Assembly: GCA_030390025.1 (NCBI GenBank)
Contig: JASTWF010000325.1
Location: 248,001 to 312,000, forward strand
DNA length: 64,000 nucleotides
Direction of reading: 5' to 3'
Origin: Squalus acanthias
Taxonomy: Eukaryota
Shown: positions 3,684 through 64,000 of the stretch, in pieces
Layout: each line of letters opens with the position of its first letter
Position numbering within the stretch: position 1 is the first letter of the stretch
Translations under genes and position numbers: made by a program
Notes under the pieces: model-generated
Databases searched by the model: none
The model's input: only the letters and a program-made list of their open reading frames with translations
What the model was told of the DNA's origin: nothing

Positions 3684-3904
3684 GTAACCCAGCGAGTGAC
3701 GAATTGGGGAATGGAGATGGGGGGCTATGTCCAGTTGGGAGATGGGTCTAGTAAACTCTAACAATAGAACCATCTCCTGGGAGAGGGGAGGGGGGCATTG
3801 ACATTATAACCAGATCCTGGGGAGTGGGGTCACCAATGTTATAACCATCAGCTGGGGGAGCACACTGGCATTATAAGCAGTGAACAATGGGAGGCCTTCA
3901 AAGA

Positions 3905-4464
3905 GCACTCTTTGCTGGTCTGTGCTGGCAGCACACTCTCTGCTGGACTATGCTGGGAGCACACCCTCTGCTGGACTGTGCTGGGAGCACACACTCTGCT
4001 GGACTGTGCTGGAGCGCACTCTCTGCTGGACTGTGCTGGGAGCACACTCTCTGCTGGACTGTGCTGGAGCACACTCTCTGCTGGACTCTGCTGGGAGCAC
4101 ACTCTCTGCTGGACTGCGCTGGGAGCACACTCTCTGCTGGACTGTGCTGGAGCGCACTCTCTGCTGGACTGTGCTGGGAGCACACTCTCTGCTGGACTGT
4201 GCTGGAGCACACTCTCTGCTGGACTCTGCTGGGAGCACACTCTCTGCTGGACTGTGCTGGGAGCAGACACTCTGCTGGTCTGTGCTGGGAGCACACACTG
4301 TGCTGGACTGTGCTGGCAGTACACTCTCTGCTGGACTGTGCTGGAGCACACTCTCTGCTGGACTGTGCTGGGAGCACACTCTCTGCTGGACTGTGCTGGA
4401 GCACACTCTCTGCTGGACTCTGCTGGGAGCACACACTCTGCTGCACTGTGCTGGGAGCACACAC
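3905..4464. repeat. Minisatellite, 27-28-bp unit (CTCTCTGCTGGACTGTGCTGGGAGCACA), left part, split by the provirus
   Basis: Tandem repetition. The same unit resumes at 16145. Confidence 0.95.
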
Positions 4465-6117
4465 TGTAAGGGTTTTTGCGTGTGTGGCTCTGTGCTCAGC
4501 CTGGGTGCTAGTGCGAGGTTAGGCCTTGTTGCCTGTTCTGGTCTCCAGCCAGTCTGGGAGCACTAGACACCTGTGAGTGGTTCGACCCACTCGCCCTTAC
4601 GGTTCTGACACTGGACTTAGATGCGAGAGCAATAATGGAGAGAAAACTCAGGTAGACCCGGTTGAATGGTACGAAATGGAAAATCTTTATTGCATATTAT
4701 TCAAGATTACGAAATACATGTCATAAGCACAGATTAATGACAGTACAATCTTACACGCAGTTATGTAACTAATTTTAGGGAAACGAGGAACGAACGACAC
4801 ATCGTAAATGGGGGCACACATTACAGTTATCCTTAAAACTTAAACCCTCCCCTATCAATACCTGCTCTAAACTAGATTTGTAGGATCGAGACTCATGCTC
4901 ACCACTCGTGATAACTCGGAGAATTCCGAAAACTCTGCTCGGATGTTTTTACCGCAGCACCTGATCACCCACGTGTTGATCAGGGGTCTCTGTACCCCAC
5001 TTGTTTACTCGTTTCTGCTCCGGCTAGCAGGCTGGACCGTCTGCTGTCATGAAGATCTGTGTTGTCCTCGGAGTTCCGACACTACTCAAAAAAGAGTCTT
5101 CCTGTGCCCTCGCCCTGATGCGATAAAATTCGAAGAATAGTCTTCCGATGCCAGTTCTGTAAAACTCAAAAGATAGTCTTCCTGGGCAAGGAAAGTGTCT
5201 ATTCGACCTACAGGCGCGGTCGGGGCTTACTGACCGTGGCGATACGTATGGTCGTCTTCTTCTCTTCTCATCTCATCTCATCTCATCTCATCTCATCTCG
5301 GGCCTTCGGTTCCAACACCGTTTACCGACTTCTCGGGATGGTGTGCCCGTTTCAAGGCTTCACAGCCCGGTTCCACACAGATCTTCGCGGCAAGCCACGA
5401 GGCTGATCCTGGCGGATCAGAAGGTTCGACAGTCTTTCAAGCTGCAAGAGGCAGATGCAAGAGCAAGGCGGCAAGAGGATAAGAGAAAGATGGACGGTTG
5501 GAGCTTACAGTTATAGTGCTGTGATTCCTCTTTTCCCGCCCAATCTTAATGTCTTTTCTTTTGTCAGAGTTTTGGCGCTCAAACTCCTTGTATAGGGTGA
5601 TCTCCGTTTAATGGGTTTCGGTGATACTTGTAACTGCCTGAGTACCTGTTAATACTTTTCCCAATGTGTAACCGGTCAGTATTCTCCCTGGAGGGGTTTT
5701 GGGGCTTCCAAATGTTTTCTGTAACTACCCGCAAACGGCTCTCTCATCGTAGAGTCGTGGGGATTTTGCATATTAATGTCTTTGGATGGGTTCTTGATCG
5801 CTTGGTACAATAGCCCTTATTCGCACCTGGGAGACCGATTCCAGTATTTATGTGTATACTGCAAACCCATAATGTCTTGTGTATTATCTCAAATGTGCTG
5901 AGTCTTGATCGATCTCGCACAAATGTTTATTGGAATGCCATCTTGTCTGCTTATCGAAAAGTCTAGAATGTTCTGCCACGAGGCGTGGCGGCCATTTTAC
6001 AGGCTGCTTGTGTCCACTTTGAAAACCTGACAGCATTCTGCTGAAATAAAGCTGTTTGAACGAAACTATGTGTTTTCTCCTTATTTATAAAATCACGATT
6101 ATATTGCGAATTCTACA
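4465..6117 (-). repeat. 3' LTR. The 617 bp at 4465-5081 are shared with the 5' LTR; probable full length about 1653 bp, to 6117
   Basis: On the - strand it reads TGTAGAA...CTTACA (TGTA/TACA inverted ends) and directly follows a purine tract at 6118-6129. TATAA near 5511-5515, AATAAA at 4686-4691, (TCTCA)n at 5266-5299. Confidence 0.75.
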
Positions 6118-6129
6118 GTCCCTCCTGTT
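6118..6129 (-). promoter_or_regulatory. Putative polypurine tract (AACAGGAGGGAC|TGTAG)
   Basis: Purine-rich run directly 5' of TGTA on the element strand, downstream of env. Confidence 0.6.
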
Positions 6130-6570
6130 GATGCGAATAACTCCGCTTATCGTATCAAAAATATTGTGGTGAGCAATATTATCTCGATTTCTCCAGATCC
6201 AGAAAAATAATCCCCATAACTTAAACTATCTAGGGTCTTTGCGTCGTCCTTATTTCCCAGGAAAATTACATTCTTATAACACCGCAGGCATTATTTGCCT
6301 TTAAAACTTACACCACTTGTTTTCCTTCCAGGCGTAACCAGGCCGATGCCTCTCGTATCACCTGTATATTCACATTTCTTTATTCAGGGAAAAGAAAAAC
6401 AAAACAAAACCAAACGATCATATTCAACCACAACACCATCACCAAAATAATCAAAACCAACTCTTAAACATGTCGAGTTCCAAACGTAATTACAGTTTCT
6501 GAAAAATCACGATCGATTACAACACTTCCGAGGCGCACGTGGCAAACGGGAGTGACGCCATTTTTTCTGA

Positions 6571-9033
6571 TTACACGGTGCTTTCATCGTGCACGCGCAC
6601 GTAACGTTCTCGCCACTCTCCCGTGTTTTCGTTCTTGGTGAGGCGTTTGCCTCTCTTACAATGTACGACCAATAAGTATACCACAATAAACACTTGGCAT
6701 ACAACTAAAATGTGGGAGGCTATTCTAATCCAGGAAGGCACTTCAATGTTGGTGAACAGATTCCACCACGGTGGAATTACTATGTCCAGAATTTCTGTCC
6801 CTATCTCGACAGTTTTCTGCTCTAGTGTGTAAAAATGTTTTTGTGACACCGCGACGGCTTTCAAAAGCTTGGTGAGGTGTTCAGGGAGAGGGGGAATGAG
6901 GTATCCGAAATGCGCGACGAATCGCTGCAGGTCGGTGAAGTTCTCTTTTACGGTAAGATGAACCGTGGATGGTTCAGGGATTGGGACAATTCGCTGTTGT
7001 GCTACTTGAACTTCCGCCCTGGGTTTGAAACAGAAACTGCTGTCACTCACCGGACACCGGCTACGGTTTCCCTGTTGGTAGTGTTGCGCTGCAGTGGTAA
7101 CACAATATGTTCCACCCCCGATGTATGCTACCTGCGGAGGCACATGATCTTGTGCCATTGCCTCCATGGTGCAATTCATGGACTTGGCGCCAGCCGTTCT
7201 GAACCCGCACTGTGGTGTTAAAAAGGCATTCAAGTGCTGGGGACACAGTATTATGTGTGCTCCCCTGCCACGACAACCAGAGAGATCTGTACCTGTCATC
7301 GTTTGCTCCCAGCGGATGACGTAGGGTGGAACCGCTGCATAGCGAATGTGGGCTCCCCCCTGAATGACACCAATGTTCTCTACCCGATACACCGGGGCGG
7401 GCTTTGTTGTGTCGCCCAAAACCGGCATACGTAATACTATACCCATGATAGTATGGTTTGATCGTCCGCAGTCCACGGGGACTGGGTATGCTTCTGAAGC
7501 TAGCCTGAGCTGGCACGGGCTTAATGCGTTCTGAAAAGGGTGGAGCGCCCGCAGGTGTTTGTTACTTATCCAGGACGGGACCAAACCTTGTTTTAAATCC
7601 TCCAAATTACTGCGGCCCTCGCCCAGTAACCACGCCCCGTAAAGCACGCACACCTCATTCTGCGCAGCTTGATCGGACGCATTCCGATCTTCCCTAATCA
7701 GGGCATTTACCGTTCTCGCGTGTTTCTCCAGCTCTGCTATTATGTCTTTTAAATGGAGGGTCATGGCCTGGTCTTCGTGTAACCCAGACCCAACCACCTT
7801 ATTTTCATCTGTGAGAATGTCCTTTAATTGCGTTTTTAAGCCATTAATCTGGGTCTGCAGCTCCACGCTGTCTAGAGCGTTGACCACAGATGTACCTGTG
7901 TTGAAAGCAGTGAACGCGTCGTTCACAACACCCCTTGTTTGCCTCCCCACCTGATCCAAAACTTCATGTGGTGCGGTGTACAAACTTGTTTTATCAATTT
8001 CCGCGAAATCAAATTCGTAAAATTGTCTGAACATCTTGGTCAACAGGACCTGATACAACTGTTCCGTCTTTTTGGGGCACCACTCTGGTAACCGCACCTC
8101 GGTGAGATTTAAAATCACCGAGGCCACCGCGTAATGTACCCCCTGAAATAGTATCTGGTCTGTGGGGACCAGCACCAAACCATTCCCGGGTCCCTTACTG
8201 GTTTTAGGGCACCCTTCTTCCTTAGCTAGAACCACCGGAATCGTGGGTGGGGCCTTGCGTGGGCGCGTAATGAGTTCAGTGGCATTTACCGGGATCGAAG
8301 AGTATGGAGCTCCGCACCCCCTGGTGCTCGCATCCCACCTCATCCCCTGTCTGTTATCCTGCCATTGATTAATGAAAAATATGGAGATGCCTTTGGGGCA
8401 AACGTACTTTGACCCCCACATACATACATAAATTCCCTCATCCGGTTCCCACCATTTGTCCCAACAGACTCTCACTTGTCCGTTTGTCCCCGTAATTGTC
8501 CGATGGGTATTATTACCCAGTCGCTCCCACTCGACCGAAGAGTTCCTCATGTTTTTGCTCAGCTTTCGTAGCCACCACCATCGGCTCAATGGGACATTCC
8601 CATTACAAGTCAAACAAATCCGTTTGCCGACGGTGACGCTGATCCTGGGTGCGATGATCCTTACTTTGGGGCACAGTAAAGAAGTCTCTTGGTAGGCAAA
8701 ACCCGATGTGCTGGAATACTCCATTGAGTTCGTTCCCAGCCATCCTGGCCACCTTCCCTTGTGGAAATAGGTGGTGGTCTCCTCAGCCTCCCGTCTTCCG
8801 GTCCCATCCACCGCGATGGGGGCCGTGTCCCCGGAGCATCCAAACACCACGACATCCTTGGTGTGGCCTCGATAGGCCAATCCACATCCGATTGCCGCGA
8901 GCAATACTAGAATTCGTTCCATCCTTCCTTGGTTCCTGTGATCAGATAGAATGAGGTAGCCAGCCTCGCAAGAGTCTCTGGCTTTTGTGAAGGGTGAGCG
9001 GGTCCCCTGACCTCGCCTCACGTAAGAAGACAT
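6571..9033 (-). CDS. env: Envelope glycoprotein, 820 aa, intact: signal peptide, Ig-like domain, class I fusion (paramyxo/pneumovirus F-like) ectodomain, TM anchor
   Basis: Signal-like MERILVLLAAIGCGLA from Met at 8922; LTC..W..DEGIYVC; RQTR|GVVNDAF cleavage site followed by a heptad region; Cys-rich TDLSGC..IILCP..QCG..NCT..YCV segment; hydrophobic TM near 6655-6725; short basic tail. Confidence 0.88.
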   Translation of the reverse strand: MSSYVRRGQGTRSPFTKARDSCEAGYLILSDHRNQGRMERILVLLAAIGCGLAYRGHTKDVVVFGCSGDTAPIAVDGTGRREAEETTTYFHKGRWPGWLGTNSMEYSSTSGFAYQETSLLCPKVRIIAPRISVTVGKRICLTCNGNVPLSRWWWLRKLSKNMRNSSVEWERLGNNTHRTITGTNGQVRVCWDKWWEPDEGIYVCMWGSKYVCPKGISIFFINQWQDNRQGMRWDASTRGCGAPYSSIPVNATELITRPRKAPPTIPVVLAKEEGCPKTSKGPGNGLVLVPTDQILFQGVHYAVASVILNLTEVRLPEWCPKKTEQLYQVLLTKMFRQFYEFDFAEIDKTSLYTAPHEVLDQVGRQTRGVVNDAFTAFNTGTSVVNALDSVELQTQINGLKTQLKDILTDENKVVGSGLHEDQAMTLHLKDIIAELEKHARTVNALIREDRNASDQAAQNEVCVLYGAWLLGEGRSNLEDLKQGLVPSWISNKHLRALHPFQNALSPCQLRLASEAYPVPVDCGRSNHTIMGIVLRMPVLGDTTKPAPVYRVENIGVIQGGAHIRYAAVPPYVIRWEQTMTGTDLSGCRGRGAHIILCPQHLNAFLTPQCGFRTAGAKSMNCTMEAMAQDHVPPQVAYIGGGTYCVTTAAQHYQQGNRSRCPVSDSSFCFKPRAEVQVAQQRIVPIPEPSTVHLTVKENFTDLQRFVAHFGYLIPPLPEHLTKLLKAVAVSQKHFYTLEQKTVEIGTEILDIVIPPWWNLFTNIEVPSWIRIASHILVVCQVFIVVYLLVVHCKRGKRLTKNENTGEWRERYVRVHDESTV

Positions 9034-9227
9034 GTGCGCTGGATAAACTGTAACTAATCCTATCTCTAAAAACTCCCATCATTTTACCTCTTTATATTAA
9101 ACAAAATTAAACTACCGACTTAAACCGATTTCAAACTATAAACTTATTCTTAACCTTAAACTATAAACTTAGAAACTTATCCTAAACTTATTACTGTACA
9201 GCGCCGCCCATTCCCAGGGCGGCTCAT

Positions 9228-12200
9228 TTAAATTCTAAAAAGGCTGCCACGAGCTTTTCCCGACGGTGGGAGGGCATTGACCCCTCCCTTTGATCTGCCG
9301 CAGCCTGTTGCTGCTGCGCTGGGACTGGGCTCTCCCTGGGCTGCCTTAGCCTTGAGCCTACGCCTTGGGACACTCTGGGGACTTGACCATACCTTCCTGG
9401 GCTGGGGTATCCGACCTGACCTACGGAGAGCTACCGGGGGCAGGAACTCCAGGACCGACGGACCGGGTTCCGAGACTTCCACCGTGGCGACCTGTGGTCC
9501 CGCCACAGTCGCTGGCTCCGCCTCCCCTGGCTCCGCCTCCCTGAACTCGGGATCTGCAGCTTGTGGCACCGCCCTACTCGGCCCAGTAGGCGGCCCTTCA
9601 CTCGCAGTCCATACCTCCCTCGAGGGCAAGACGTTCAAGGCGGGCGGCTCGGGCTCTGAGGCTTCCATCGCCACGCCCTGTGGTCCCACCACAGCGGCTG
9701 GCTCCGCCTCCCTTGGCTCCGCCCCCCTGCTTTCAGGACCTGCAGCTTCGGCTTCCACCCTGTGTGGATCTCTATCTGCAGCCCCTGCCCCCCCTATGCC
9801 TGAATCGGGGGCGACCCTTTCGTCCTCCGATTCCCGCTCCTCCTCGCTTGTGTCACTATCTTCACTATCACTATCTTCACTATCCTCATCTGACTCCCAA
9901 CCCCACAAAAATGTCTCACAATTTTCCAGGATGTCCCCTCCCCTGATGCAAGCTGCTTTGCCTGCCTGTGTGCCCTGTGGCCCTACCTGGGGCCGCGAGT
10001 CCCCACTCGCAGGTTTGGCCCCTGTGGTTGGCCCTTGTGCACCTGGCTTGTACAGTTTGCACTGATTTACGTGGAACCACTTAGTGCGCCGAGGTACCTT
10101 TACGGCGTATACCATGGGACTCGCCTTATCTACAATGTTGTAGGGTCCCATATACAGTGGTTCCAGACTCCCTACTCTGGCGTAGTTTCTGACCATGACC
10201 TGGTCTCCTACTTCCCACTCCCGCGTTTTGCGGGGTTCCAGCAACAGGCGATTGCCCTGATGCTGCCTTCCCATGTTCCCAGCCGCCTGCTCATAAACCT
10301 GCTTCAGGCGCTCCAAGAGGGTCTGGGCGAACTTGTCCCTGCTTATCTCTTGGAGCTGACCCTCAGTGAGCACCGGAGCTAGCACATGGGTGGGGGTTCG
10401 CATGATCCTCCCAGTCATCACCTCGTGCGGGGAATACCCCGTACTTTTCGACTGACTGGCCCGGACCCCCATGAGGACTAAAGGCAGAACCTCCGCCCAT
10501 TTTTGGGGCGAGTTCATAGTCTCTTTCCTCAATTTTTCCTTCAGGGTCCGGTTCATGCGTTCAACAATCCCGGATGACTGGGGATTGTGTGCTACGTGCC
10601 ATTTCCCTTCAATGCCCAAAAGCATGAGGGTGTTCTGCATCACCTGGCCGGTGAAATGACTCCCTTGGTCTGACTCCACAAAACGGGGGAGTCCCCACCG
10701 CGAGAACACCTCCCGGACCAAGATTTTTGCAGTACCCAGTGCCGTAGCTGTTCTACAGGGGAAGGCTTCCACCCATTTGGAAAACACATCCCCCAAGACG
10801 AGGCAGTATTTATAGCCTCCCTGGGTGGTGGGCAGGGGCCCTATATAGTCGATCTGTATCGACTGCCATGGTCCCTCTACCCTCCTGACGTGCCCCATGG
10901 GCACTTTCCTTTTCTGGGGGTCTGGGTTGTTTGCAGCGCACACGAGACAGCTTTCACAGAACTCGCGGACCTGTTCCCTGAGCCCCGGCCACCATCCCGC
11001 TTACTCTACCCGTTGCCAGGTAACCTCGGGCCCGGGGTGCCCTGCCCCCGGTCCCTCGTGAGCCAACTGGAGGAATTCCCTCCTGTGCTGCTGCGGCACA
11101 ACCCACTGCTCTTCGCGGAACAGCATGCCTTCCTTAACTGAGAGGGTTGCCGTACTGTACGGACCCTCTACCTGCTTCCCCTCAGCAAGGGTTTTGAGGA
11201 CTGCTTTTAGGGCGGGATCCTGGTTCTGGACGGCCTTAAGGTCTAGGGGCAATGCTACCCTGGTGTTCCCGGGATTCCCGTCCCTGCCTTGGATCGCTGC
11301 CATGGGTCTGGGCCCATAGGGGTCCCAGAAAATGCCGTTGCGGGCACCCTCTCTGGCTAGCGCATCCGCCTGCTGGTTGCCCTCCCCACGGGGCTCTGTG
11401 GAGGAGTGAGCCTTCACCTTATGGATGAAAATCTCCCCTTCCTCCCCTACTGCTGCTAGGATCTTTTCCAGCAAGGGCTTCACCGTTAAAGGTCGCCCGT
11501 CCGCGGAGGTGTATCCACGGCGGGACCAAATGGCCAGGTATTCCGTACACGAATTGCATGTGAACATACTGTCCGAGCAAATCGTGTATGGGGTTGGGAA
11601 AATTTCTGGGTGGGTAACGACGTACACCACTGCAGACAGCTCAGCCTGCTGCGCGCTCATGGTGCTGGGGAGCTTAATCGCCAGGGCAAGGTTTGCCGCA
11701 GGGTCATAAACTCCACACCCTGTGAGTCGTTCGCCAGCGGACACTGTGCTGGAACCATCAACATAAATCTCGCGCCCAGTGGGATGTATCCCGGCCCGCA
11801 AACCTATGTTGACTTCCCACACCCCTTCCACCGAACACTGGTGGGCTGTACCGGGGTATACCAAATTGGCCGCAAGCCTGGGCTCGCAAAGACCTTTAAC
11901 TCTAAGATCCATCTGGGAGAGAAGAAGGGTCCAGCGCGCAATACGCACGCTGCTTACGGTCCCATCTTTAATCCTCCCATCTAGAAGCATCTTAGTTGGT
12001 GTGTGATGGGTGAGGAGAGTGATGGGAGAGAGCCCTGTGAAGATCGCTGATCTTTTCACAGCCCAATGCGTGGCTAAAACGTGCCTTTCGCAATTGGAGA
12101 AACTTCTCTCCACATCCGTTAACACCCTGGACGAATAGACAAACGGCCTCAGCTTGCCGTGACGCTCTTGGAGCAGCACAGCGCTCAAGCTGTCCCCGCT

Positions 12201-13717
12201 GGCAGCTACCTCCAGGAAAAACTCCTTCCCCCCATCTATGGCCCCTAAAGCTGGCGCGGTCTGCAAATCCCTTTTTAACTTCTCGAAGGCTGCTTGGCAT
12301 CCCTCGTCCCAAGACCACTCCACTCCCTTATGGAGGAGTCGGAGCAGCGGCGCCGCTGTGGCCGCATAGTCTTCGATAAAATCCCTACAGTAACCGGTCA
12401 GTCCCAAAAAGGACCTCACACCCCTTATAGTGTTGGGAATCAGTAACTCTTGCACCGACTCCCTCCTAGCCTTATCTATGGCTCTTTCCCCAGCGCGAAT
12501 GGTCAGCCCCAGGAATTTTACTTCCTGCTGACCGATACGTGCTTTCTTAGGGTTTACTTTAAAACCCTTTCTCGCTAGCAGCTCCAATAACTCGGCCAGC
12601 AGTTGTCCATGCTCCTCCCTTGAATCCGTAAATAGGAGCAAATCATCCACGTACTGCACTATCTGATTGGGCTGACTAAACTCCTTTAAACTTCCTGCCA
12701 TACACTGATGGAAAATACTGGGGCTGTTGTGGAAACCCTGTGGCAAACAGTTCCATGTGTACTGTTGTCCTTTGAAAGTAAAGGCAAACTTGTACTGGTC
12801 CTCTCGCCGCAGCGGGATGGACCAAAAACCGTTCGAGATATCCAGCACCGTGAACGTGGTCGCGGACGCTGGGATACTCCCTATTAGGTCAGCGACTGCT
12901 GCTACCGTGGGCGCGCAGGCGGGAATGTTACTGTTAAGGACTCTGTAGTCCACCGTGGCCCTCCACGAATTATCCGGCTTCCTAACTGGCCATAATGGGG
13001 AGTTCACGTGTGTGGCTATCGGCCTCAACACGCCCTGCTGCACCAAGGAGGACATGGCTGTCTCCATGTCGGGTTCTGCTTCTTTGGGGAAGTTATACTG
13101 CTTTTGGGGCCGGGTCATGGGGTCCCATCTACGCTGACCTCAAACCCGGTAACCCTCCCACAATCGTGCTTGTGGGTTGCAAACGCGTGCATATTATCTG
13201 ACACGTACGTTTGCATGTCCGTTGGGACATCCGCGACCATAAGCCCAAGGTCGTAGCCTCCGGATGGCTTCATGGTACACAGGGTCCCTGTTCCTTCCTC
13301 CCCCGGAATTACCACTACCTCGCCGTCTCCACCCTTAGCCCCCCAGAGACAGTGATTCCTGAGGTCCACGAGGATCCCGTGCCCCGATAGGAGATCGGAC
13401 CCGAGGATACCTCTCCCACCCCCCTCTTGCCATTTCATCAGTATGCACTTCCACGTGGTGTGGAGTGCTCCTAAATGAATGGATAGCGGTAGGGAGAACG
13501 CGCCAGCCTGCTCTTTTCCCGTGAACCCCGCTAATGTGAATGGGACCTTGGTAGATAGCGGTGAGTCAAAAGGGCTATCTGTATGAATCACGGTGCAAGA
13601 AGCTCCCGTGTCCAACAAATAACTACCCTTCTGTTGCTCTACCTCCATCTCCACCAGGGGTCGCTTCCACGCATCATAGCTGAGCGGACACAGGTAGACG
13701 GGCTGCGCGGGCTCTAG
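9228..13717 (-). pseudogene. pol: pro-pol: aspartic protease, RT, tether (degenerate RNase H), RNase H, integrase with GPY module and long low-complexity tail; disrupted by a -1 frameshift near 13118 and an in-frame TAA at 11001-11003
   Basis: LLDTGAS and ILGSDLL; LDISNGFWSIP, LPQGFHNSP, YVDD; YVDGS..AEL..SDS..KVKAH..GNQQAD; AH..GH..(stop)..CLVC zinc finger; IDYIG..SDQGSHF..VERMNRTLK; YMGPY. Confidence 0.93.
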
Positions 13718-15469
13718 TCATTGGGTACTATTAGACGGGGCTGTGGCACCTGCGGGGCCGGTAGCAACCGCCACCTTTCCATGCGCACTCATGAGGTTAC
13801 GCATGGCTCCCAACACTGTTTCGATCGCGTCGGGATGGATGGGTGCACTAGCTTCCCTATCAGCGACAGGCGCCTGGGCTCGGGCTGCGGGATTTTTATC
13901 CCTGGAATCCTTCCAAGGGTTCCTGCAGTTCTTGCGCCAGTGCCCTGTCTTCCCACACCCGTAACAAGCATTGCTGGCCTGCGGGGCGCGGTTACCCTCC
14001 TGATGCCACTCCTTTTGAGCCGGGGCTGCGGGTCGTGCCTCATGCACCTTTCCCTTAAGGGGACGTGCTCCCGTACTCCTGGTATTACGGTACCCTACCG
14101 TGAGTCGATTTAGGACCGACTCCTCTGTAGTGGCGGGGTTAGTGGGATCAAACCACGCTTTTGCCTGCTCCCTGACGGCTGGCAAACTGTTGGTTACTAT
14201 ACACCTGAGCCAATGAGTTAAACCGACGCCTTCCACATTGGCGCGCTCTGGCGCACCTGGGCAGCTACGCTGGTATACTGGCCACAGCCTGTCGGCGAAA
14301 ACCTTCGGGGGTTCTCCCTCCATCTGCACTGTCTGTCCCAGTCTAACAAACGGACCTTCATCGTCCGCTCCCAACACTTCTAGGACCTCATTTCTTAGTG
14401 TCCCATAGGTATTAGTTCCCCTCTTGCTCTCGTCTGAGAGACACTGAAGGATCGAACTATCTAATGAGAATAACAGCCTCTTTGCTGTTTCCCCATCGTC
14501 GCAGCCGTTAATGGCTGCGGTTTGCTCTATTTCCCTAAAATGTACGGAAGGGTCGTCTGACTCGGCCAGTTTCCGGACGTGACTGATCATAATCCTCAGC
14601 TGGTGTGAGCTGTGAGGCAACACAAGCTGGTTGAGGAGATCCCCTTCTTCCCCACCGTCTCTGTTCGGGCCCCTTTTGATACCCGTGACCGGACACAACG
14701 GTCCCGGCTTCACTTCTACCTCAGTGGGCTCTTTCGTTACTTCCACCACTTCCTCCCTTACCCAGGTTTCCGAATAGCTGGGTGGCGCGGAGGGCATAGT
14801 GGCTAATACTTCCTCTGCTTTGTTCGGTGGGGATTTCTGAAATCCCTCATCCACTAGCGGCTGGTGTGCTGACGGACTGATAAGGCACACTATGCCGTGT
14901 GCTTTGTTCACGGCCCTTTTAAGGTGCTCTATCTCCTTTTGGCAGACGCTGTGATCGGCCCCCTGAAATTTATCCTCGAGGGCCATCTTATATGCCGCCC
15001 TAACCCCCGTTAAGCTCTCTTCCTGGGCTTTTATTTGGGCAGCTTGGCGGGCACATCGTTCCTTTAATCTGCCCTCACTTAACTTTGCCTCAGTGACCTG
15101 GCACTCGAGGTAATCTATTTTTGCTTTATGGTGGTTGGTGACTACCTGGCGTTCTTGATGCAACGCATTTAAAGTCGTGATGAGCTGTTGCCCCCCCACG
15201 ACCTTCTCGTCCATTCCCACCTCTAAACGCCTGATCTGAGCTGCTTGCGCTGTAATGACCTGGTCCGAAATTTGGACTTGTCTTTTATAGCACATCAGCC
15301 AGACCGCTTTCTCCACTGCCTTTTTATGTTCCTTGCTATCTGTCCACCTCTCGGCTGCCTCTAGTGGACGCTTATCCACCAGCAGGTCACTTATTCATTT
15401 CTTGGTCAAATTCACTTTTCCGAACACATAATCTGCTATTCTCTCTTCCATGACATTTCGCCCAATCAT
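13718..15469 (-). pseudogene. gag: gag: coiled-coil N-terminus, PSAPPSY late domain, capsid-like region, one CCHC knuckle. Likely start ATG 15469 or 15451; in-frame TGA at 15395-15397
   Basis: CYGCGKTGHWRKNC at 13925-13966. The frame continues upstream of the tracked ORF as MIGRNVMEERIADYVFGKVNLTKK*ISDLLVDKRP. Confidence 0.88.
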
Positions 15470-15504
15470 ACCAAAGTCTAACACATTACCCTCTCGCTGC
15501 CAGT

Positions 15505-15522
15505 GTCCTGCCGCGGTCGCCA
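15505..15522 (-). promoter_or_regulatory. Primer-binding site TGGCGACCGCGGCAGGAC, complementary to the 3' 18 nt of tRNA-Arg(UCG)
   Basis: The + strand reads GTCCTGCCGCGGTCGCCA, matching the vertebrate tRNA-Arg-TCG 3' end including CCA as I recall it. It lies 5 nt inside the 5' LTR end. Confidence 0.88.
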
Positions 15523-15527
15523 TTTTC

Positions 15528-16144
15528 TGTAAGGGTTTTTGCGTGTGTGGCTCTGTGCTCAGCCTGGATGCTAGTGCGAGGTTAGGCCTTGTTGCCTGTT
15601 CTGGTCTCCAGCCAGTCTGGGAGCACTAGACACCTGTGAGTGGTTCGACCCACTCGCCCTTACGGTTCTGACACTGGACTTAGATGCGAGAGCAATAATG
15701 GAGAGAAAACTCAGGTAGACCCGGTTGAATGGTACGAAATGGAAAATCTTTATTGCATATTATTCAAGATTACGAAATACATGTCATAAGCACAGATTAA
15801 TGACAGTACAATCTTACACGCAGTTATGTAACTAATTTTAGGGAAACGAGGAACGAACGACACATCGTAAATGGGGGCACACATTACAGTTATCCTTAAA
15901 ACTTAAACCCTCCCCTATCAATACCTGCTCTAAACTAGATTTGTAGGATCGAGACTCATGCTCACCACTCGTGATAACTCGGAGAATTCCGAAAACTCTG
16001 CTCGGATGTTTTTACCGCAGCACCTGATCACCCACGTGTTGATCAGGGGTCTCTGTACCCCACTTGTTTACTCGTTTCTGCTCTGGCTAGCAGGCTGGAC
16101 CGTCTGCTGTCATGAAGATCTGTGTTGTCCTCGGAGTTCCGACA
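15528..16144 (-). repeat. 5' LTR, 617 bp, probably truncated
   Basis: Matches 4465-5081 except for 2 substitutions found by manual comparison. Confidence 0.93.
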
Positions 16145-16333
16145 TTCTCTGCTGGACTGTGCTGGGAGCACATTCTCTGCTGGACTGTGCTGGGAGCACA
16201 CTCTCTGCTGGACTGTGCTGGGAGCACACACTCTCTGCTGGATTGTGCTGGGAGCACATTCTCTGCTGGACTGTGCTGGGAGCACATTCTCTGCTGGATT
16301 GTGCTGGGAGCACACTCTCTGCTGGACTGTGCT
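16145..16333. repeat. Minisatellite, 28-bp unit, right part
   Basis: Same unit as 3905-4464. Confidence 0.93.
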
Positions 16334-16914
16334 AGAATATTTTTTCTGTAAGGGAAGTCAGTGTGCGGTGGAATTTCTCCCCTGATCTGAGCTACTACAA
16401 CTGGGGTCTGTTCGAGTTCAATAAAATGCAGCAAACAATTATAGGTTGGAATTATTGGGAGGGGAGACTTGTCCTTTACTGGAGAATGGACACTGAATTT
16501 GCCTGCCTTTGTTAGTGGGAACATTTCTGTGAATTTGACCATCAGAAATCTGGCTGGGTCAGAGCCCTATGTACAGGTGGAGCTTCTGGTCACCTCAAAG
16601 TGGTTCAGTAAAGTAAATATACAGGCAAAATGTTAGACAGCACATTATTTGGAACAGAGAACTAGAATCAGCCCACAGGGAGCTGATTAATACATTCAGA
16701 ATGTTCCCAGATTCCTTACGGTTTCTTGGAGTGACGCATTTGATAAGATGAACCTCCTTTAGTTGCTTACTATGATCTTGCCTCCACTCAGTGTCTACAC
16801 ATACACCTCCCAGCGGGGATAGCGATCATGAGTGAGTACCCTGACTCGATTCTCCCCTCCCTGACAACTTCATCGCCGAGTCAATTGTAGCCACCCTCCC
16901 CCCACCTGGTATAG

Positions 16915-51435: not shown

Positions 51436-51635
51436 NNNNNNNNNNNNNNNNNNNNNNNNNNNNNNNNNNNNNNNNNNNNNNNNNNNNNNNNNNNNNNNNN
51501 NNNNNNNNNNNNNNNNNNNNNNNNNNNNNNNNNNNNNNNNNNNNNNNNNNNNNNNNNNNNNNNNNNNNNNNNNNNNNNNNNNNNNNNNNNNNNNNNNNNN
51601 NNNNNNNNNNNNNNNNNNNNNNNNNNNNNNNNNNN
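51436..51635. other. Assembly gap (200 N)
   Basis: Run of N. Confidence 1.
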
Positions 51636-51974: not shown

Positions 51975-54900
51975 CCAGTGTGTAACATTGCTCTATCTAT
52001 CTCAGTCTCGGTGTGTGTGTAACATTGCTCTATCTATCTCATTCCCAGTGTGTGTGTAACATTGCTCTATCTATCTCAGTCCCAGTGGGTGTGTAACATT
52101 GCTCTATCTATCTCAGTCTCAGTGTGGGTGTAACATTGCTCTATCTATCTCAGTCTCAGTGTGTGTGTAACATTGCTCTATCTATCTCAATCTCGGTGTG
52201 TAACATTGCTCTATCTATCTCAGTCTCAGTGTGTGTGTAACATTGCTCTATCTATCTCCGTCTCGGTGTGTAACATTGCTCTATCTCAGTCTCAGTGTGT
52301 GTGTAACATTGCTCTATCTATCTCAGTCTAGGTGTGTGTGTAACATTGCTCTATCTATCACAGTCTCAGTGTGTGTGTAACATTGCTCCATCTATCTCAG
52401 TCTCAGTGTGTGTGTAACATTGCTCTATCTATCTCATTCCCAGTGTGTGTGTAACATTGCTCTATCTATCTCAGTCTCAGTGTGTAACATTGCTCTATCT
52501 ATCTCAGTCTCAGTGTGAACATGCTCTAACTATCTCCGTCTCGGTGTGTAACATTGCTCTATCTCAGTCTCAGTGTGTGATGTAAGATGCTCCATCTATC
52601 TCAGTCTCAGTGTGGGTGTAAACATTTGCTCTAATCTATCTCAGTCTCGGTTTGTGTAACATTGCTCTCTCTATCTCAGCTCTCGGTGTGTAACATGCTC
52701 TATCTATCTCTGTCTCATTGGTTGTGTGTAACATTGCTCTATCTAATCTCAGTCTCGGTTGTGTAACATTGCTCTATCTATATCAGTCTCAGTGTGTGTG
52801 TCACATTGCTCTATCTATCTCAGTTCGGTGTGTAACATTGCTCTATCTATCTCAGTCTCGGTGTGTAACATTGCTCTATCTATCTCAGTCTCAGTGTGTG
52901 TGTCACATTGCTCTATCTATCTCAGTCTCGGATCTGTGTAACATTGCTCTATCTATCTCAGTCTCAGTGTGTGTGTAACATTGCTCTATCTATCTCAGTC
53001 TCAGTGTGTAAACATTGCTCTATCTATCTCAGTCTCGGTGTGTGTGTAACATTGCTCTATCTATCTCAGTCTCAGTGTGTGTGTAACATTGCTCTATCTA
53101 TCTCAGTCTCAGTGTTTGTAAACATTGCTCTATCTATCTCAGTCTCTCGTGTGTGTGTGTAACATTGCTTATCTATCTCAGTCTCGGTGTGTGTGTAACA
53201 TTGCTCTATCTATCCTCAGTCTCTGTGTGTGTGTAACATTGCTCTATCTATCTCAGTCTCGGTGTGTAACATTGCTCTATCTATCTCAGTCTCGAGTGTG
53301 TAACATTGCTCTATCTATCTCAGCTCATCGGTGTGTAACATTGCTCTATCTATCTCAGTCTCAGTGTGTAACATTGCTCTATCTATCTCAGTCTCAGTGT
53401 GTAACATTGCTCTATCTATCTCAGTCTTGGTGTGTGTGTGTGGAACATTGCTCTATCTATCTCAGTCTCAGTGTGGGTGTAACATTGCTCTATCTATCTC
53501 AGTCTCAGTGTGTAACATTGCTCTATCTATCTCAGTCTCAGTGTGTGTAACATTGCTCTATCTATCTCAGTTCAGTGTGTAACATTGCTCTATCTATCTC
53601 AGTCTCGGTGTGTAACATTGCTCTATCTATCTCAGTCTCAGTGTGTGTGTAACATTGCTCTATCTATCTCAGTCTCAGTGTGTGTGTGACATTGCTCTAT
53701 CTATCTCAGTCTCGGTGTGTGTCACATTGCTCTATCTATCTCGTCTCGGTGTGTAACATTGCTCTATCTATCTCAGTCTCAGGTGGGTGTAACATTGCTC
53801 TATCTATCTCAGTCTCAGTGTGTAACATTGCTCTATCTATCTCAGTCTCAGTGTGTAACATTGCCTTATCTATCTCCGTCTCGGGTGTGTAACATTGCTC
53901 CTACCTCAGTCTCAGTGGGTGTGTGTAACATTGCTCTATCTATCTCAGTCTCGGTGTGTGTGCAACATTGCTCTATCTATCTCAGTCTCGGTGTGTGTGT
54001 AACATTGTTTTTTTTCCCATCTACTCAGTCTCAGTGTGTGTGTAACATTGCTCTATCTATCTCAGTCTCGGTGTGTAACATGCTCTATCTATCTCAGTCT
54101 CGGTGTGTGTGTAACATTGCTCTATCTATCTCAGTCTCGGTGTGGTAACATTGCTCTATCTATCTCAGTCTCGGTGTGTGTAACATTGCTCTATCTATCT
54201 CAGTCTCGGTGTGTAACATTGCTCTATCTATCTCAGTCTCAGTAGTGTTAATATTGCTCTATCTATCTCGTCTCGGTGTGAAACCTTGCTATATACTCAG
54301 TCTCAGTGTGTGTGTAACATTGCTCTATCTATCTCAGTCTCAGTGTGTGTGTAACATTGCTCTATCTATCTCAGTCTCGGTGTGTAACATTGCTCTATCT
54401 ATCTCAGTCTCAGTGTGTGTGTAACATTGCTCTATCTATCTCAGTCTCGGTGTGTAACATTGCTCTATCTATCTCAGTCTCGGTGTGTGTGTAACATTGC
54501 TCTATCTATCTCAGTCTCAGTGTATGTGTAACATTGCTCTATCTATCTCAGTCTCAGTGTGTGTGTAACATTGCTCTATCTATCTCAGTCTCAGTGTGTA
54601 ACATTGCTCTATCTATCTCAGTCTCGGTGTGTAACATTGCTCTATCTATCTCAGTCTCAGTGTGTAACATTGCTCTATCTATCTCAGTCTCAGTGTGTAA
54701 CATTGCTCTATCTATCTCAGTCTCAGTGTGTAACATTGCTCTATCTATCTCAGTCTTGGTGTGTGTGTGTGGAACATTGCTCTATCTATCTCAGTCCCAG
54801 TGTGTGTGTAACATTGCTCTATCTATCTCAGTCTCAGTGGGTGTGTCACATTGCTCTATCTACCTCAGTCTCAGTGTGGTGTGTAAACATTGCTCTATCT

Positions 54901-57900
54901 AACTCAGTCTCAGTGGGTGTGTAACATTGCTCTATCTATCTCAGTCTCAGTGCGGTGTGTACAATTGCTTTATCTATCTCAGTCTCGGTTGTGTGTGCTA
55001 CACTTGCTCTATCTATCTCAGTCTCGGTTTGATGTAACATTGCTCTATCTATCTCCAGTCTCGGTGGTGTAACATTAGCTCTATCTATCTCAGTCTCATG
55101 TGTTGTAACATTGCTCAATCTATCTCAGTCTCAGTGTGTATACATTGCTCTATCTATCTCAGTCTCAGTGTGTAACATTGCTCTATCTATCTCAGTCTTG
55201 GTGTGCTGTGTGTGAACATTGTCTATCTATCTCAGTCCCAGTGTGTGTGTAACATTGCTCCTATCTATCTCAGTCCTCAGTGGGTGTGTGTAACATTGCT
55301 CTATCTACTCAGTCTCAGGTGTGGTGTAACATTGCTCTATCTACCTCAGTCTCAGTGTGTGTGTAACATTGCTCTATCTATCTCAGTCTCAGTGTGTAAC
55401 ATTGCTCTATCTATCTCAGTCGCAGTGTGTGTGTAACATTGCTCTATCTATCTCAGTCTCGGTGTGTGTGTAACATTGCTCTATCTGTCTCAGTCTCAGT
55501 GTGTGTGTAACATTGCTCTATCTATCTCAGTCTCGGTGTGTGTGTAACATTGCTCTATCTGTCTCAGTCTCAGCGTGTGTGTAACATTGCTCTATCTGTC
55601 TCAGTCTCAGTGTGTGTGTAACATTGCTCTATCTATCTCAGTCTCAGTGTGTGTGTAACATTGCTCTATCTATCTCAGTCTCGGTGTGTGTGTGTAACAT
55701 TGCTCTATCTATCTCAGTCTCAGTGTGTGTGTAACATTGCTCTATCTATCTCAGTCTCAGTGTGTGTGTAACATTGCTCTATCTATCTCAGTCTCGGTGT
55801 GTAACATTGCTCTATCTATCTTAATCTCAGGTGTGTAACATCTGCCCCTCTATCTATCTCAGTCTCAGTGTGTAGCATTGCCTCTATCTATCTCCAGTCT
55901 CAGTGTGTAACATTGCTCTATCTATCTCGTCTCAGTGTGTAGCAATTGCTCTATCTATCTCAGTCTCAGTGTGTGTGCTATCATTGCTCTATCTATCTCA
56001 GTCTCGGGGTGTGTGTAACATTGCCTCTATCTATCTTCCAGTGTGAGTGTCAAACATTGCTCTATCTATCTCAGTCTCAGTGTGTGTGCTAACATTGCCT
56101 CCTATCTATCTCAGTCTCAGGGGGTGTGTGTGACATTGCCTCTATCTATCTCAGTCTCGGTGTGTGTAACATTGCTCTATCTATCTCAGTCTCAGTGTGT
56201 AACATTGCCTCTATCTATCTCAGTCTCAGTGTGTAACATTGCTCTATCTATCCTCCGTCTCGGTGTGTAACAATGCTCTATCTCAGTCTCAGTGTGTGTG
56301 TAACATTGCTCTATCTATCTCAGTCTCAGTGTGTAACATTGCTCTATCTATCTCAGTCTCAGTGTGTAACATTGCTCTATCTATCTCCGTCTCGGTGTGT
56401 AACATTGCTCTATCTCAGTCTCAGTGTGTGTGTAACATTGCTCTATCTATCTCAGTCTCAGTGTGTGTGTAACATTGCTCCATCTATCTCAGTCTCAGTG
56501 TGTGTGTAACATTGCTCTATCTATCTCAGTCTCGGTGTGTAACATTGCTCTATCTATCTCAGTCTCGGTGTGTAACATTGCTCTATCTATCTCAGTCTCG
56601 GTGTGTAACATTGCTCTATCTATCTCAGTCTCAGTGTGTAACATTGCTCTATCTATCTCAGTCTCAGTGTGTGTGTAACATTGCTCTATCTATCTCAGTC
56701 TCGGTGTGTAACATTGCTCTATCTATCTCAGTCTCGGTGTGTGTGTAACATTGCTCTATCTATCTCAGTCTCTGTGTGTGTGTCACATTGCTCTATCTAT
56801 CTCAGTCTCGGTGTGTAACATTGCTCTATCTATCTCAGTCTCGGTGTGTAACATTGCTCTATCTGATCGACTCAGTCTCAGTGTGTAACAATTGACTCTA
56901 ATCTGTCTCAGTCTCAGTGAGGTAACATTGCTCTATCTATCTCAGTCTCAGTGTGTAAACATTGCTCTATCTATCTCAGTCTTGGTGTGTGTGTGTGGAA
57001 CATTGCTCTCTCTATCTCAGTCTCAGTGTGGGTGTAACATTGCTCTATCTATCTCAGTCTCGCGGTGTGGGGTGTAACATTGCTCTATTATCTCAGTTCA
57101 GTGTGTGTGTCACCATTGCTCTATCTATCTCAGTCTCAGTGTGTGTGTCACATTGCTCTATCTAATCAGCCTCGTGTGTGTGTAACATTGCTCTATCTAT
57201 CTCAGTCCTCGGAGTGTGTGTGTCACATTGCTCCTATCTATCTCAGTCTCGGTGTGTAACATTGCTCTATCTATCTCGTCTCGTGTGTGTGTCACATTGC
57301 TCTATCTATCTCAGTCTATGTGTGTGTGTAACATTGCTCTATCTATCTCTGTCCTCAGTGTGTGTGTCACATTGCTCCTATCTATCTCAGTCTCAGTGTG
57401 TGTAACAGTGCTCTATCAGTATCTCAGTCTCGGTGTGTGTGTAACATTGCTCTATCTATCTCAGTCTCTCTGTGTGGTAACATTGCTCTATCTATCTCCT
57501 CGTCTCGGTTGTGTAACATTGCTCTATCTATCTCAGTCTCGGTGTGTAACATTGCTCTATCTATCTCAGTCTCAGGTGTGTAACATTGCTCTATCTATCT
57601 CAGTCTTGCGTGTGTGTGTTGTGGAACCATGCTCTATCTATCTCAGTCTCAGTGTGTGTGCAAACATTGCTCTATCTATCTCAGTCTCAGTGTGGGTGTG
57701 TAACATTGCTCTATCTTCTCAGTCTCAGTGTGTGAGTAACATTGCTCTATCTATCTCAGTCTCAGAGTGTGTGTAACATTGCTCTATCTATCTCAGTCTC
57801 AGTGTGTGTGTCACAGTGCTCTATCGCCTATCTATCTCAGTCTCGTGTGAGTGTAACATTGCCCTCTATCTATCTCAGTCTCGGTGTGTGTGTAACATTG

Positions 57901-60900
57901 CTCTATCTATCTCAGTCTCAGTGTGTGTGTAACATTGCTCTATCTATCTCAGTCCTCCGTGTGTGTGTGACATTGCTCTATCTATCTCAGTCTCAGTGTG
58001 TGTGCACATTGCTCTATCTATCTCAGTCTCTGTGTGTAACATTGCTCTATCTATCTCAGTCTCCAGGTAGTGTGAACATTGCTCTATCTATCTCAGTCTC
58101 AGCTGTGTGTGCTAACATTGCTCTATCTATCTCAGTCGTGTGTGTGTAACATTCGTCTCATCTATCTCAGTCTCAGTGTGTGGGTGTCACATTGCTCTAT
58201 CTATCACAGTCTCGGTGTGTGTAAACATTGCTCTATCTATCTCAGTCTCAGTGAGTGTGTAACATTGTCTATCTATTCCTCGTCTCAGTGTGTGTGTACC
58301 ATTGCTCTATCTATCTCAGTCTCGCAGTGTGTAAGCATTGCTCTATCTATCTCAGTCTCAGTTTGTGGTCACATTGCTCTATCTATCTCAGTCTCGGTGT
58401 GTAAAATTGCTCTATCTAATCTCAGTCTCTGGTGTGTGTGTGAACATTGCTCTATCTAATCTCCTGTCTCAGTGGTGTGTAACATTGCTCCTATCTATCT
58501 CAGTCTCGAGTGTGTAACATTGCTCTATCTATCTCAGTCTCAGTGTGTGTACATTGCTCTATCTATCTCAGTCTCAGTGTGTAACATTGCTCTATCTATA
58601 TCAGTCTCGGTGTGTGGTAACATTGCTCTATCTATCTCAGTCTCAGGTGTGTGTAAACATTGCTCTATCTATCTCAGTCTCAGTGTGTGTGTGAACATTG
58701 CTCTATCTATCTCTGTCTCAGTGTGTGTGTAACATTGCTCTATCTATCTCAGTCTCGTGTGTGTGTAACATTGCTCTATCTATCTCAGTCTCAGTGTGTG
58801 TGTAACATTGCTCTATCTATCTCAGTCTCAGTGTGTAACATTGCTCTATCTATCTCAGTCTCAGTGTGTAACATTGCTCTATCTATCTCCGTCTCGGTGT
58901 GTAACATTGCTCTATCTATCTCAGTCTCAGTGTGTGTGTAACATTGCTCTATCTATCTCAGTCTCAGTGTGTGTGTAACATTGCTCTATCTATCTCAGTC
59001 TCGGTGTGTGTGTAACATTGCTCTATCTATCTCAGTCTCAGTGTGTGTGTAACATTGCTCTATCTATCTCAGTCTCAGTGTGTGTGTGACATTGCTCTAT
59101 CTATCTCAGTCTCAGTGTGTAACATTGCTCTATCTATCTCAGTCTCGGTGTGTGTCACATTGCTCTATCTATCTAAGTCTCGGTGTGTAACATTGCTCTA
59201 TCTATCTCAGTCTCAGTGTGTGTGTAACATTGCTCTATCTATCTCAGTCTCAGTGTGTAACATCGCTCTCTCTATCTCAGTCTCTGTGTGTGTGTGTAAC
59301 ATTGCTTTATCTATCTCAGTCTCGGTGTGTGTGTAACATTGCTCTATCTATCTCAGTCTCTGTGTGTGTGTAACATTGCTCTATCTATCTCAGTCTCGGT
59401 GTGTAACATTGCTCTATCTATCTCAGTCTCGGTGTGTAACATTGCTCTATCTATCTCAGTCTCAGTGTGTAACATTGCTCTATCTATCTCAGTCTCAGTG
59501 TGTAACATTGCTCTATCTATCTCAGTCTCAGTGTGTAACATTGCTCTATCTATCTCAGTCTCAGTGTGTAACATTGCTCTATCTATCTCAGTCTTGGTGT
59601 GTGTGTGTGGAACATTGCTCTATCTATCTCAGTCTCAGTGTGTGTAACATTGCTCGATCTATCTCAGTCTCAGTGTGTGTGTAACATTGCTCTATCTATC
59701 TCAGTCTCAGTGTGTGTGCAACATTGCTCTATCTATCTCAGTCTCAGTGTGGGTGTAACATTGCTCTATCTATCTCAGTCTCAGTGTGTAACATTGCTCT
59801 ATCTATCTCAGTCTCAGTGTGTGTGTCACATTGCTCTATCTATCTCAGCCTCGGTGTGTGTGTAACATTGCTCTATCTATCTCTGTCTCAGGTGTGTGTG
59901 TCAACATTGCTCTATCTATCTCAGTACTCGGTATGTGTAACATTGCTCTATCTATCACAGTCTCGAGTGGTCGTGTGTAACATTGCTCTATCTATCTCAG
60001 TCTCAGGGGTGTGTGTACTATTGCCTCTATCTATCTCAGTCTCAGTGTCTGTGTGTGACATTGCTCTACCTATCTCCAGTCTCGGTGTGTGTAACACTTG
60101 CTCTATCTATCTCAGTCTCAGTGTGTAACATTGCTCTATCTATCTCAGTCTCAGAGTGTAACATTGCTCTATCTATCTCCGTCTCGGTGTGTAACTATTG
60201 CTCTATCTCAAGTCTCAGTCGTGTGTGTAACATTGCTCTATCTATCTCAAGTCTCGGATGTGTGTGTAACATGCTCTATCTATCTCAGTCCCAGTGTGTG
60301 TGTACACTTGCTCCATCTATCTCAGCTCTCAGTGCTGTGTGTAACATTGCTGTATCTATCTCAGGTCTCAGTGTGTAACATTGCTCTATCTATCTCAGTC
60401 CTAATGTGTAACATTGCTCTATCTATCTCAGTCTCAGTGTGTGTGTAACATTGCTCCATCTATCTCAGTCTCAGTGTGTGTGTAACATTGCTCTATCTAT
60501 CTCAGTCTCGGTGTGTAACATTGCTCTATCAATCTCAGTCTCAGTGTGTAACATTGCTCTATCTATCTCAGTCTCAGTGTGTGTGTGACATTGCTCTATC
60601 TATCTCAGTCTCGGTGTGTGTAACATTGCTCTATCTATCTCAGTCTCAGTGTGTAACATTGCTCTATCTATCTCAGTCTCAGTGTGTAACATTGCTCTAT
60701 CTATCTCCGTCTCGGTGTGTAACATTGCTCTATCTCAGTCTCAGTGTGTGTGTAACATTCCTCTATCTATCTCAGTCTCAGTGTGTAACATTGCTCTATC
60801 TATCTCAGTCTCAGTGTGTAACATTGCTCTATCTATCTCTGTCTCAGTGTGTAACATTGCTCTATCTATCTCAGTGTGTGTGTAACATTGCTCTATCTAT

Positions 60901-63900: not shown

Positions 63901-64000
63901 TCAGTGTGTGTGTAACATTGCTCTATCTATCTCTGTCTCAGTGTGTGTGTAACATTGCTCTATCTATCTCAGTCGCAGTGTGTGTGTAACATTGCTCTAT
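51975..64000. repeat. Minisatellite of over 12 kb, 33-37-bp unit GTAACATTGCTCTATCTATCTCAGTCTCAGT(GT)n
   Basis: Tandem repetition to the end of the window. Confidence 0.98.

Follow-up and report, generated by a model that had tools for sequence, protein, structure and literature searches.

Lokiretroviruses were defined by reverse transcriptase (RT) phylogeny (Wang and Han 2021, PMC7947760). In the available part of that paper, the RT motif is PFG[YL] in 24 of 24 lokiretrovirus rows of Dataset S3, while the snakehead retrovirus (SnRV), foamy and gamma rows have LPQGF; the lokiretrovirus YxDD box is of the IYVDDIL type, the integrase is close to CGIN1, and Fig. S1 places lokiretroviruses in none of six cartilaginous fishes. 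Endogenous retroviruses (ERVs) related to SnRV have been described in a chimaera, as CmiERV lineage I of the elephant shark (Han 2015, PMC4422223). Clade Huo, as far as the available text of Xu et al. (2018, PMC6001957) goes, is the most widely distributed clade and also includes class III ERVs. Here we compare with these systems a provirus from Squalus acanthias, located on the minus strand at positions 4465-16144 of a 64,000-nucleotide stretch (assembly GCA_030390025.1, contig JASTWF010000325.1, positions 248,001 to 312,000), which we call the window. The order of its parts is long terminal repeat (LTR)-primer-binding site (PBS)-gag-stop-pro-pol-env-polypurine tract-LTR.

A reading made from the letters of the window had described this element as a very young, near-complete lokiretrovirus-like provirus. 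We read it as a defective provirus of a very large ERV family. By its RT, this family groups with the classical retroviruses rather than the lokiretroviruses, and reinfection over the past few million years is the likely source of its copies; we give this reading a probability of roughly 0.8. The provirus is real and dead and comes from an interesting family, and it had been filed under the wrong lineage.

Phylogenetic placement of Pol

For the tree of RT and tether (43 rows, 397 columns), 28 class I-like or duplicate rows were left out, and seven loki-type rows, all natural database proteins from an exhaustive protein search, were included. With the Gypsy outgroup at 100/100, the seven loki-type proteins formed one clade (100/99). 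The element was placed in the sister clade of 28 rows (100/99), together with SnRV, foamy, gamma- and epsilon-type viruses. When it was forced to group with the loki-type rows, the tree became 45 log-likelihood units worse (approximately unbiased [AU] test, p 0.0177). The proposed lokiretrovirus-like affinity was not upheld by this analysis. The RT motifs of the element, LPQGFHNSP and QYVDDLLL, are also classical. Within the sister clade, the element and P0009, a database protein 87% identical to it, were sister to proteins of Xenopus, Latimeria, Aquarana and Rhinophrynus (92/91), and the element stood outside the gamma/epsilon clades at 98/96 and 100/99. SnRV joined the gamma/epsilon (class I) side (90/85), and the rest of the classical backbone was a polytomy, as was an earlier RT tree built without loki-type rows.

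The sequence-only reading had used a degenerate RNase H tether that had lost its catalytic Asp, followed by a second, intact ribonuclease H (RNase H), as a lineage marker. The observation itself was reproduced by Pfam and by the alignment with Gypsy rows. Pfam detected RVT_1 (E 4e-37), RT_RNaseH_2/RT_RNaseH (E 1e-20 and 1e-16) and RNase_H PF00075 (E 1e-20) in pol. In the tether, the first catalytic column has Ala and the third-site column His, each against Asp in seven of eight Gypsy rows, and the second RNase H retains its four acidic motifs. Judged by these residues, the tether derives from a Ty3-type RNase H that has decayed, and the second RNase H is intact. The layout does not discriminate, because it is common to all retroviruses, and it thus serves as a caution: a dual RNase H is no mark of a lokiretrovirus.

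The view that places the element among lokiretroviruses, or beside them as a close sister, draws on this dual RNase H, on a large Env whose furin-like site is followed by a long stretch, and on the aquatic host. Over RT and tether, identity to the loki-type rows (32-36%) is near that to SnRV (38%). The integrase scored 221-225 bits against loki-type proteins, above the exogenous retroviruses tried (SnRV, 124; gamma types, 132-140). The frog and coelacanth relatives are annotated as "NYNRIN-like" (the frog ones in NCBI) or "Gypsy retrotransposon integrase-like protein 1", and we take NYNRIN to be the same as CGIN1, the protein to which lokiretrovirus integrase was found close in the part of PMC7947760 at hand. 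These scores count against a purely classical placement, and so do several properties of the trees. The loki-type rows are tied to the published ones by a 21-residue RT motif that is identical to a Wang and Han row in four of seven and one or two residues off in three of seven, within the published rows available. The RT tree was built without alpha, beta, delta, lenti and ERV-L (class III) references, and its only foamy virus sits on a long branch. The integrase tree, which holds no CGIN1/NYNRIN row, has a polytomous backbone. In that same tree, however, two loki-type rows formed a clade of their own without the element. Integrase scores with the frog and coelacanth relatives, at about 50% identity over RT and tether, were 281-295 bits. 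Together with the RT clades and the AU test, the LPQGF of the element and of all classical rows seen, against PFG[YL] in the Dataset S3 rows (PMC7947760), the lack of a PF00523 match in Env, and the absence of lokiretroviruses from the cartilaginous fishes of Fig. S1 in that paper make this view very improbable.

Could the element instead be specifically SnRV-like, that is, a member of clade Huo in the manner of CmiERV lineage I? Among exogenous viruses, SnRV matched pol best (35% identity, E 2e-98), both have gag and pol in one frame interrupted by a stop, and the N-terminal part of Gag is rich in coiled coils in both. A chimaera is already known to carry SnRV-related ERVs (PMC4422223), and clade Huo, in the available text of PMC6001957, is the one most widely distributed. 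SnRV nevertheless grouped with the gamma/epsilon side and not with the element, and an exclusive clade of SnRV with the six-row group of the element was rejected (AU p 0.0106; the group was defined after the tree had been seen). Beyond the zinc knuckle, Gag and Env lack significant similarity to those of SnRV: BLASTP returned only the knuckle and hhalign with the SnRV Env a probability of 0.5%, at which distant homology is possible. A specific sisterhood with SnRV is not supported by these tests. Since clade Huo also holds class III ERVs, none of which is in the tree, the rejection covers the exclusive pairing with SnRV only, and the element may belong to the broad clade Huo. Overall, we see an SnRV-like origin as a possibility with the odds against it.

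Within the classical side, where the backbone is a polytomy, we tentatively, and with more doubt than belief, consider that the element might represent an unnamed deep branch of Retroviridae near the frog and coelacanth elements, apart from SnRV, foamy viruses and class I, and might be a past or present infectious virus of sharks and rays with thousands of copies and an env under selection. In searches of viral contigs, a single Pol protein as query matched none, and an alignment as query recovered the reference viruses; the SnRV record (locus L031) was recognised through its Gag. Among structures in the PDB, pol scored highest with the RT of murine leukemia virus (MLV; 238 bits), followed by foamy virus (220), Ty3 (138) and human immunodeficiency virus (about 60).

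As a separate feature, pol extends about 260 codons past the SH3-like part of integrase (9231-10010, minus strand) in an acidic, Pro/Glu/Ala-rich tail. This tail contains an internal 141-nt repeat (9435-9575 versus 9621-9761, 75% alike) and had no match in Pfam.

Size, age and selection of the family

In the 3.71-Gb genome that was searched, probes for LTR, pol, env and gag each gave 40 of 40 scored matches at full length and 96-100% identity. Thousands of candidates were seen at first look (LTR, 2,561; pol, 3,537; env, 4,707; gag, 3,655), figures that are not copy numbers. The LTR segments of the present copy differ at two of 617 positions, as the sequence-only reading had stated and the alignment confirmed (Kimura two-parameter [K2P] distance, 0.0033). 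The LTR pairs of eight other full copies on large contigs had K2P values of 0.0018-0.0079, so that the copy search and LTR dating suggested earlier yielded pairs 0.2-0.8% apart. The description as very young is relative: depending on the assumed rate, the divergence of 0.33% corresponds to about 0.7-7 million years. One of the rates was that assumed for the chimaera (Han 2015, PMC4422223).

Near-identity of the two LTRs could also have arisen by gene conversion or by assembly collapse instead of recent insertion. The copy is on an unplaced, satellite-rich scaffold, has no target duplication and has a shortened LTR, and thousands of near-identical copies could mislead an assembler. LTR divergence was equally low (0.18-0.79%) in the eight full-length copies on large contigs, however, and synonymous divergence between this copy and the others was just 3.6-6.2%. 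Moreover, three coding changes are private to this copy and its LTRs differ at two sites, and therefore it is not a collapsed average. We consider conversion or collapse improbable.

For lesions, open frames and selection, the reference set in each region was the 29 other copies that matched this one best. The ratio of nonsynonymous to synonymous divergence (pN/pS) was 0.16 for env (972 synonymous and 504 nonsynonymous differences) and 0.17 for pol. From these ratios, both env and pol are seen to be under purifying selection. Since the differences are mostly synonymous, the copies diverged while env and pol were functioning, a pattern that favours spread by reinfection. Given that the constraint on env matches that on pol, we propose that an infectious or cell-to-cell virus was the form in which the family spread. 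The frames were also open to a similar extent in the other copies (env, 20/29; the 2.7-kb pol segment, 22/29; gag, 21/29).

ERV megafamilies usually arise after the loss of env, and a family with a selected env would run against this pattern. A rival reading is intracellular multiplication in the manner of an LTR retrotransposon, with env as a passenger. Candidates in the thousands at first look are unusual for env-bearing ERVs, and 15 of 28 sampled LTR matches were solo LTRs. The constraint on env equals that on pol, though, and env is open nearly as often as the pol segment; we hold intracellular multiplication to be unlikely. Some features of the data weaken the case for recent reinfection: the candidate numbers are first-look figures, all pN/pS comparisons include the present copy, and the 29 others are its most similar relatives, neither independent nor random. 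In addition, no identical pair was found among the sampled LTR pairs, and for this reason current activity is not demonstrated. Of the earlier claim of a recently active enveloped lineage, an enveloped-type ERV of a recently expanded family is supported.

In four sequencing runs taken as RNA, contig depth was higher for LTR and env than for gag-pol in four of four, a measure that cannot rank genes, in runs that are possibly DNA. No leader-to-env joint was present among the contigs of these four, possibly DNA, runs. Runs under six organism labels contained 27-70% of the sampled 31-letter provirus words, and in two runs of a second organism label about 30% of the aligned contigs were at least 99% identical to the provirus. 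Given this word content and contig identity, near-identical copies seemingly occur beyond one organism label.

The Env sequence begins with a signal-peptide-like start, followed by an Ig-like stretch, a basic site, a hydrophobic stretch, a part of about 450 residues after cleavage and a C-terminal anchor. In the alignment, the basic cleavage-like site is RQTR here and RHRR or RQRR in the Env relatives. Pfam Ig_3 matched residues 140-219 at E 0.31, weaker than the cut-off, and together with the sequence pattern this suggests a probable Ig-like domain in the surface part. From this outline, we infer a class-I-type fusion protein, cleaved at the furin-like site, whose fusion subunit is long and F1-sized. 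In structural searches, no PDB chain matched Env, and the AlphaFold2 models were of low confidence (mean predicted local distance difference test score, 30.6 for the whole Env with four sequences and 37.6 for residues 300-835 with 12 sequences). No Pfam family matched Env at E up to 0.01, and PF00523 (paramyxovirus/pneumovirus F) did not match even at E up to 10. The ESM Atlas gave sub-threshold leads only, an unnamed one at 0.84 and one at 0.75 in which 19% of the members have Baculo_F. The only match of the Env profile search, Niban 2, was rejected since it had arisen through a chimeric gene model in the alignment.

Fourteen Env relatives were found, and all nine with an organism name were chondrichthyan (two skate, six sawshark and one catshark records). 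The cartilaginous-fish host that had been proposed fits with this result.

The tRNA 3' end matching the PBS occurred at 426 places in the genome, compared to none for the reversed control, and ARAGORN identified tRNA-Arg(tcg) in three of three PBS-matching loci. Many of the 426 places fall in 1.6-kb tandem units. The primer of the family is provided by a very large tRNA array on contig C26 (about 38.99-42.2 Mb; loci L079-L083), where a unit of about 1.6 kb is repeated in tandem hundreds of times; each unit has tRNA-Arg(TCG) and, where it was read, tRNA-Ser(GCT) as well.

As to what such a family adds, the chimaera ERVs were dated to more than 50 million years (Han 2015, PMC4422223). In a 2023 survey of 2,004 vertebrates, including 13 cartilaginous fishes, the legend of Fig. 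2e gives no chondrichthyan order among the 37 with invading ERVs. Young env-bearing retroviruses are hardly described in cartilaginous fishes, and the supplements of PMC10435555 and PMC6001957 may list ERVs of these fishes. Thousands of candidate copies, LTR pairs less than 1% apart and an env as constrained as pol would offer a useful view of retrovirus behaviour in the oldest jawed-vertebrate lineage.

Structure and lesions of the present copy

The features of the provirus and its flanks are compiled in Table 1. The direct repeat was aligned over 618 bp (4464-5081 versus 15527-16144) with two mismatches, both transitions (4505/15568 and 5021/16084), and no gaps. Judging from other copies, the LTR ends in ...TTACA, which gives a shared segment of 617 bp (4465-5081 and 15528-16144).

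Table 1. Coordinates in the window of the provirus, its parts and the adjoining satellite
Feature	Position	Strand	Basis or remark
28-bp satellite beside provirus 3' end	3876..4464	.	same satellite resumes at 16145
3' LTR, whole, 1,653 bp, TGTAG...CTTACA (element sense)	4465..6117	-	homologous 5' LTR starts in other copies; AATAAA at LTR position 1427
3' LTR portion common to shortened 5' LTR, 617 bp, 2 mismatches	4465..5081	-	repeat alignment
Putative polypurine tract adjoining 3' LTR, purine-rich ...AGGAGGGAC	6118..6128	-	role suggested by position; same flank precedes 3' LTRs of other copies
env open reading frame, 783 aa from Met of signal-peptide-like start, open here	6571..8922	-	within open 835-codon frame
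Env transmembrane anchor, predicted, approximate	6649..6720	-	hydrophobic run in translation
Env furin-like site RQTR, then hydrophobic stretch and long predicted helices	7933..7944	-	alignment; helices from low-confidence model only
Env surface part, probable Ig-like domain, C...W...DEGIYVC pattern	8405..8670	-	weak Pfam Ig_3 and sequence motif
pol, downstream part, 590-codon frame: remaining integrase zinc domain, rve core (10581-10871), SH3-like part, acidic tail	9228..11000	-	domain matches
Premature stop in integrase zinc-binding domain	11001..11003	-	private to this copy
pol, upstream part, 712-codon frame: RT 12498-12986, tether 11913-12311, RNase H 11343-11771, integrase zinc start	11004..13139	-	domain matches
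pro/pol frameshift, one base lost, placed near 13126	13115..13139	-	comparison with other copies
Protease, RVP, DTG active site, in gag frame	13115..13717	-	Pfam
gag-pro in-frame stop	13718..13720	-	conserved in family; likely programmed read-through site
gag, 558-codon frame, coiled-coil-rich N-terminal part, CCHC knuckle 13922-13969	13721..15394	-	domain matches
Premature stop early in gag	15395..15397	-	private to this copy
PBS, 18 nt, 5 nt past LTR	15505..15522	-	complementary to tRNA-Arg(TCG) 3' end and CCA
Shortened 5' LTR, last 617 of ~1,653 bp	15528..16144	-	first 1,036 bp of U3 gone; abuts satellite
28-bp satellite beside provirus 5' end	16145..16364	.	without 4-bp duplication matching opposite flank

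The full length of the LTR became apparent from the other copies. Ahead of the apparent start of the 5' LTR, 17 of 20 other pol-bearing copies carried DNA homologous to the sequence upstream of the 3' repeat of this copy, and in eight of ten copies followed further this homology began at one point, corresponding to window position 6117. Because of this common start, we set the family LTR at about 1,653 bp; the full LTR pairs of eight other copies aligned over 1,394-1,708 bp. In one of the ten copies followed upstream (locus L177, contig C1), the 5' LTR was directly preceded by env and 3' sequence of another copy, an arrangement that indicates tandem proviruses with one common LTR.

The 28 other best LTR matches comprised 15 solo LTRs, five 5' LTRs, four 3' LTRs and four truncated or variant forms. 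Perfect 4-bp target duplications were present in three of three full copies with both flanks read and in 12 of 15 solo LTRs. Departing from this family norm, the present copy has no target-site duplication when both flanks are compared, which fits its shortened 5' LTR. We conclude that the term near-complete was overstated, since the first 1,036 bp of the 5' LTR are gone, the target duplication is missing and three private lesions are present. The earlier idea of three edits likewise leaves the shortened 5' LTR out of account.

The loss of the front of this 5' LTR is likely due either to a deletion after insertion or to integration that went awry. In a second copy, on another small contig (C3808; loci L012, L201 and L214), the 5' LTR was cut within two bases of LTR position 1037. 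Its flanks were unlike those of the present copy and were likewise without a duplication, and it was the sole other case of this cut among 29 other gag-bearing copies. Directly before the cut point there is a T-run with a short purine motif, and what remains of the LTR starts with TG. The shared cut may reflect an internal second plus-strand priming site combined with aberrant integration, or two independent deletions or a deletion hot spot. If the element did represent a deep branch of Retroviridae, the cut would mark a second internal plus-strand priming site.

Three lesions are found in this copy alone. The early gag stop and the integrase stop (11001-11003) were sense codons in 29 of 29 other copies, and at the pro/pol junction all 29 had one base more than this copy. 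The amphibian relative P0010 (Rhinophrynus dorsalis) also has the pro/pol junction in one continuous frame. In-frame ATG codons are located upstream of the early gag stop at 15451-15453 and 15469-15471.

The stop between gag and pro behaved differently, as the identical stop codon was present in 29 of 29 other copies, and the gag-stop-pol layout is common to SnRV and to gamma- and epsilon-type records. For these two reasons, we regard it as probably signalling read-through rather than as a lesion. Gag-Pro-Pol would then be produced by reading through this stop, in the manner of gamma- and epsilon-type viruses. This particular copy is a dead, ordinary provirus, a pointer to its family.

The window is mostly satellite, with 24-, 28-, 20- and 37-bp arrays at 1-2827, 3906-4462, 16145-16364, 24417-44902 and 51978-64000. 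The 20-bp array is about 20 kb long and strongly strand-skewed, and a gap of 200 N is located at 51436-51635. The provirus is embedded in the 28-bp array, and the scaffold is apparently unplaced.

Comparison with described retroviruses

With lokiretroviruses, as far as the available part of their description reaches, the element shares the LTR-gag-pol-env organization, the tether with a second RNase H, an aquatic vertebrate host and, as in some of them, a very young insertion. Both also have a large Env that carries a basic cleavage site and a C-terminal anchor and includes helical regions. It differs in its RT, which is outside the loki-type clade and carries LPQGF and QYVDDLLL instead of PFGY and IYVDDIL, and in its Env, which is without detectable similarity to PF00523.

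SnRV resembles the element in having gag and pol in one frame split by a stop, a long Env, a fish host and a PBS of similar form. We take the PBS of SnRV to be a tRNA-Arg site as well, but the tRNA-Arg sequence at the PBS is another one, the LTR of the element is about 1.65 kb long, and Gag and Env are not detectably similar.

Gamma- and epsilonretroviruses (FeLV, RD114, REV, WDSV and SSSV; loci L032-L044) have the same Gag-stop-Pro-Pol arrangement, and the best PDB matches of the element are MLV-type RTs. Their target duplication is 4 bp, as in the family of the element. On the other hand, the element is outside the class I clade and has neither a TLV_coat-type Env nor MLV-type Gag domains.

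The nearest relatives by both RT plus tether and integrase are Pol proteins of frogs and the coelacanth (Xenopus tropicalis P0111, Aquarana catesbeiana P0012, Rhinophrynus dorsalis P0010 and Latimeria chalumnae P0014/P0020). They have the same order of protease, RT, tether, RNase H and integrase. They differ from the element in being known as gene models alone, and an identity of 40-50% sets them apart as a separate old branch. Natural sequences of the present ERV family could help to break up the long basal branches of the retrovirus tree.

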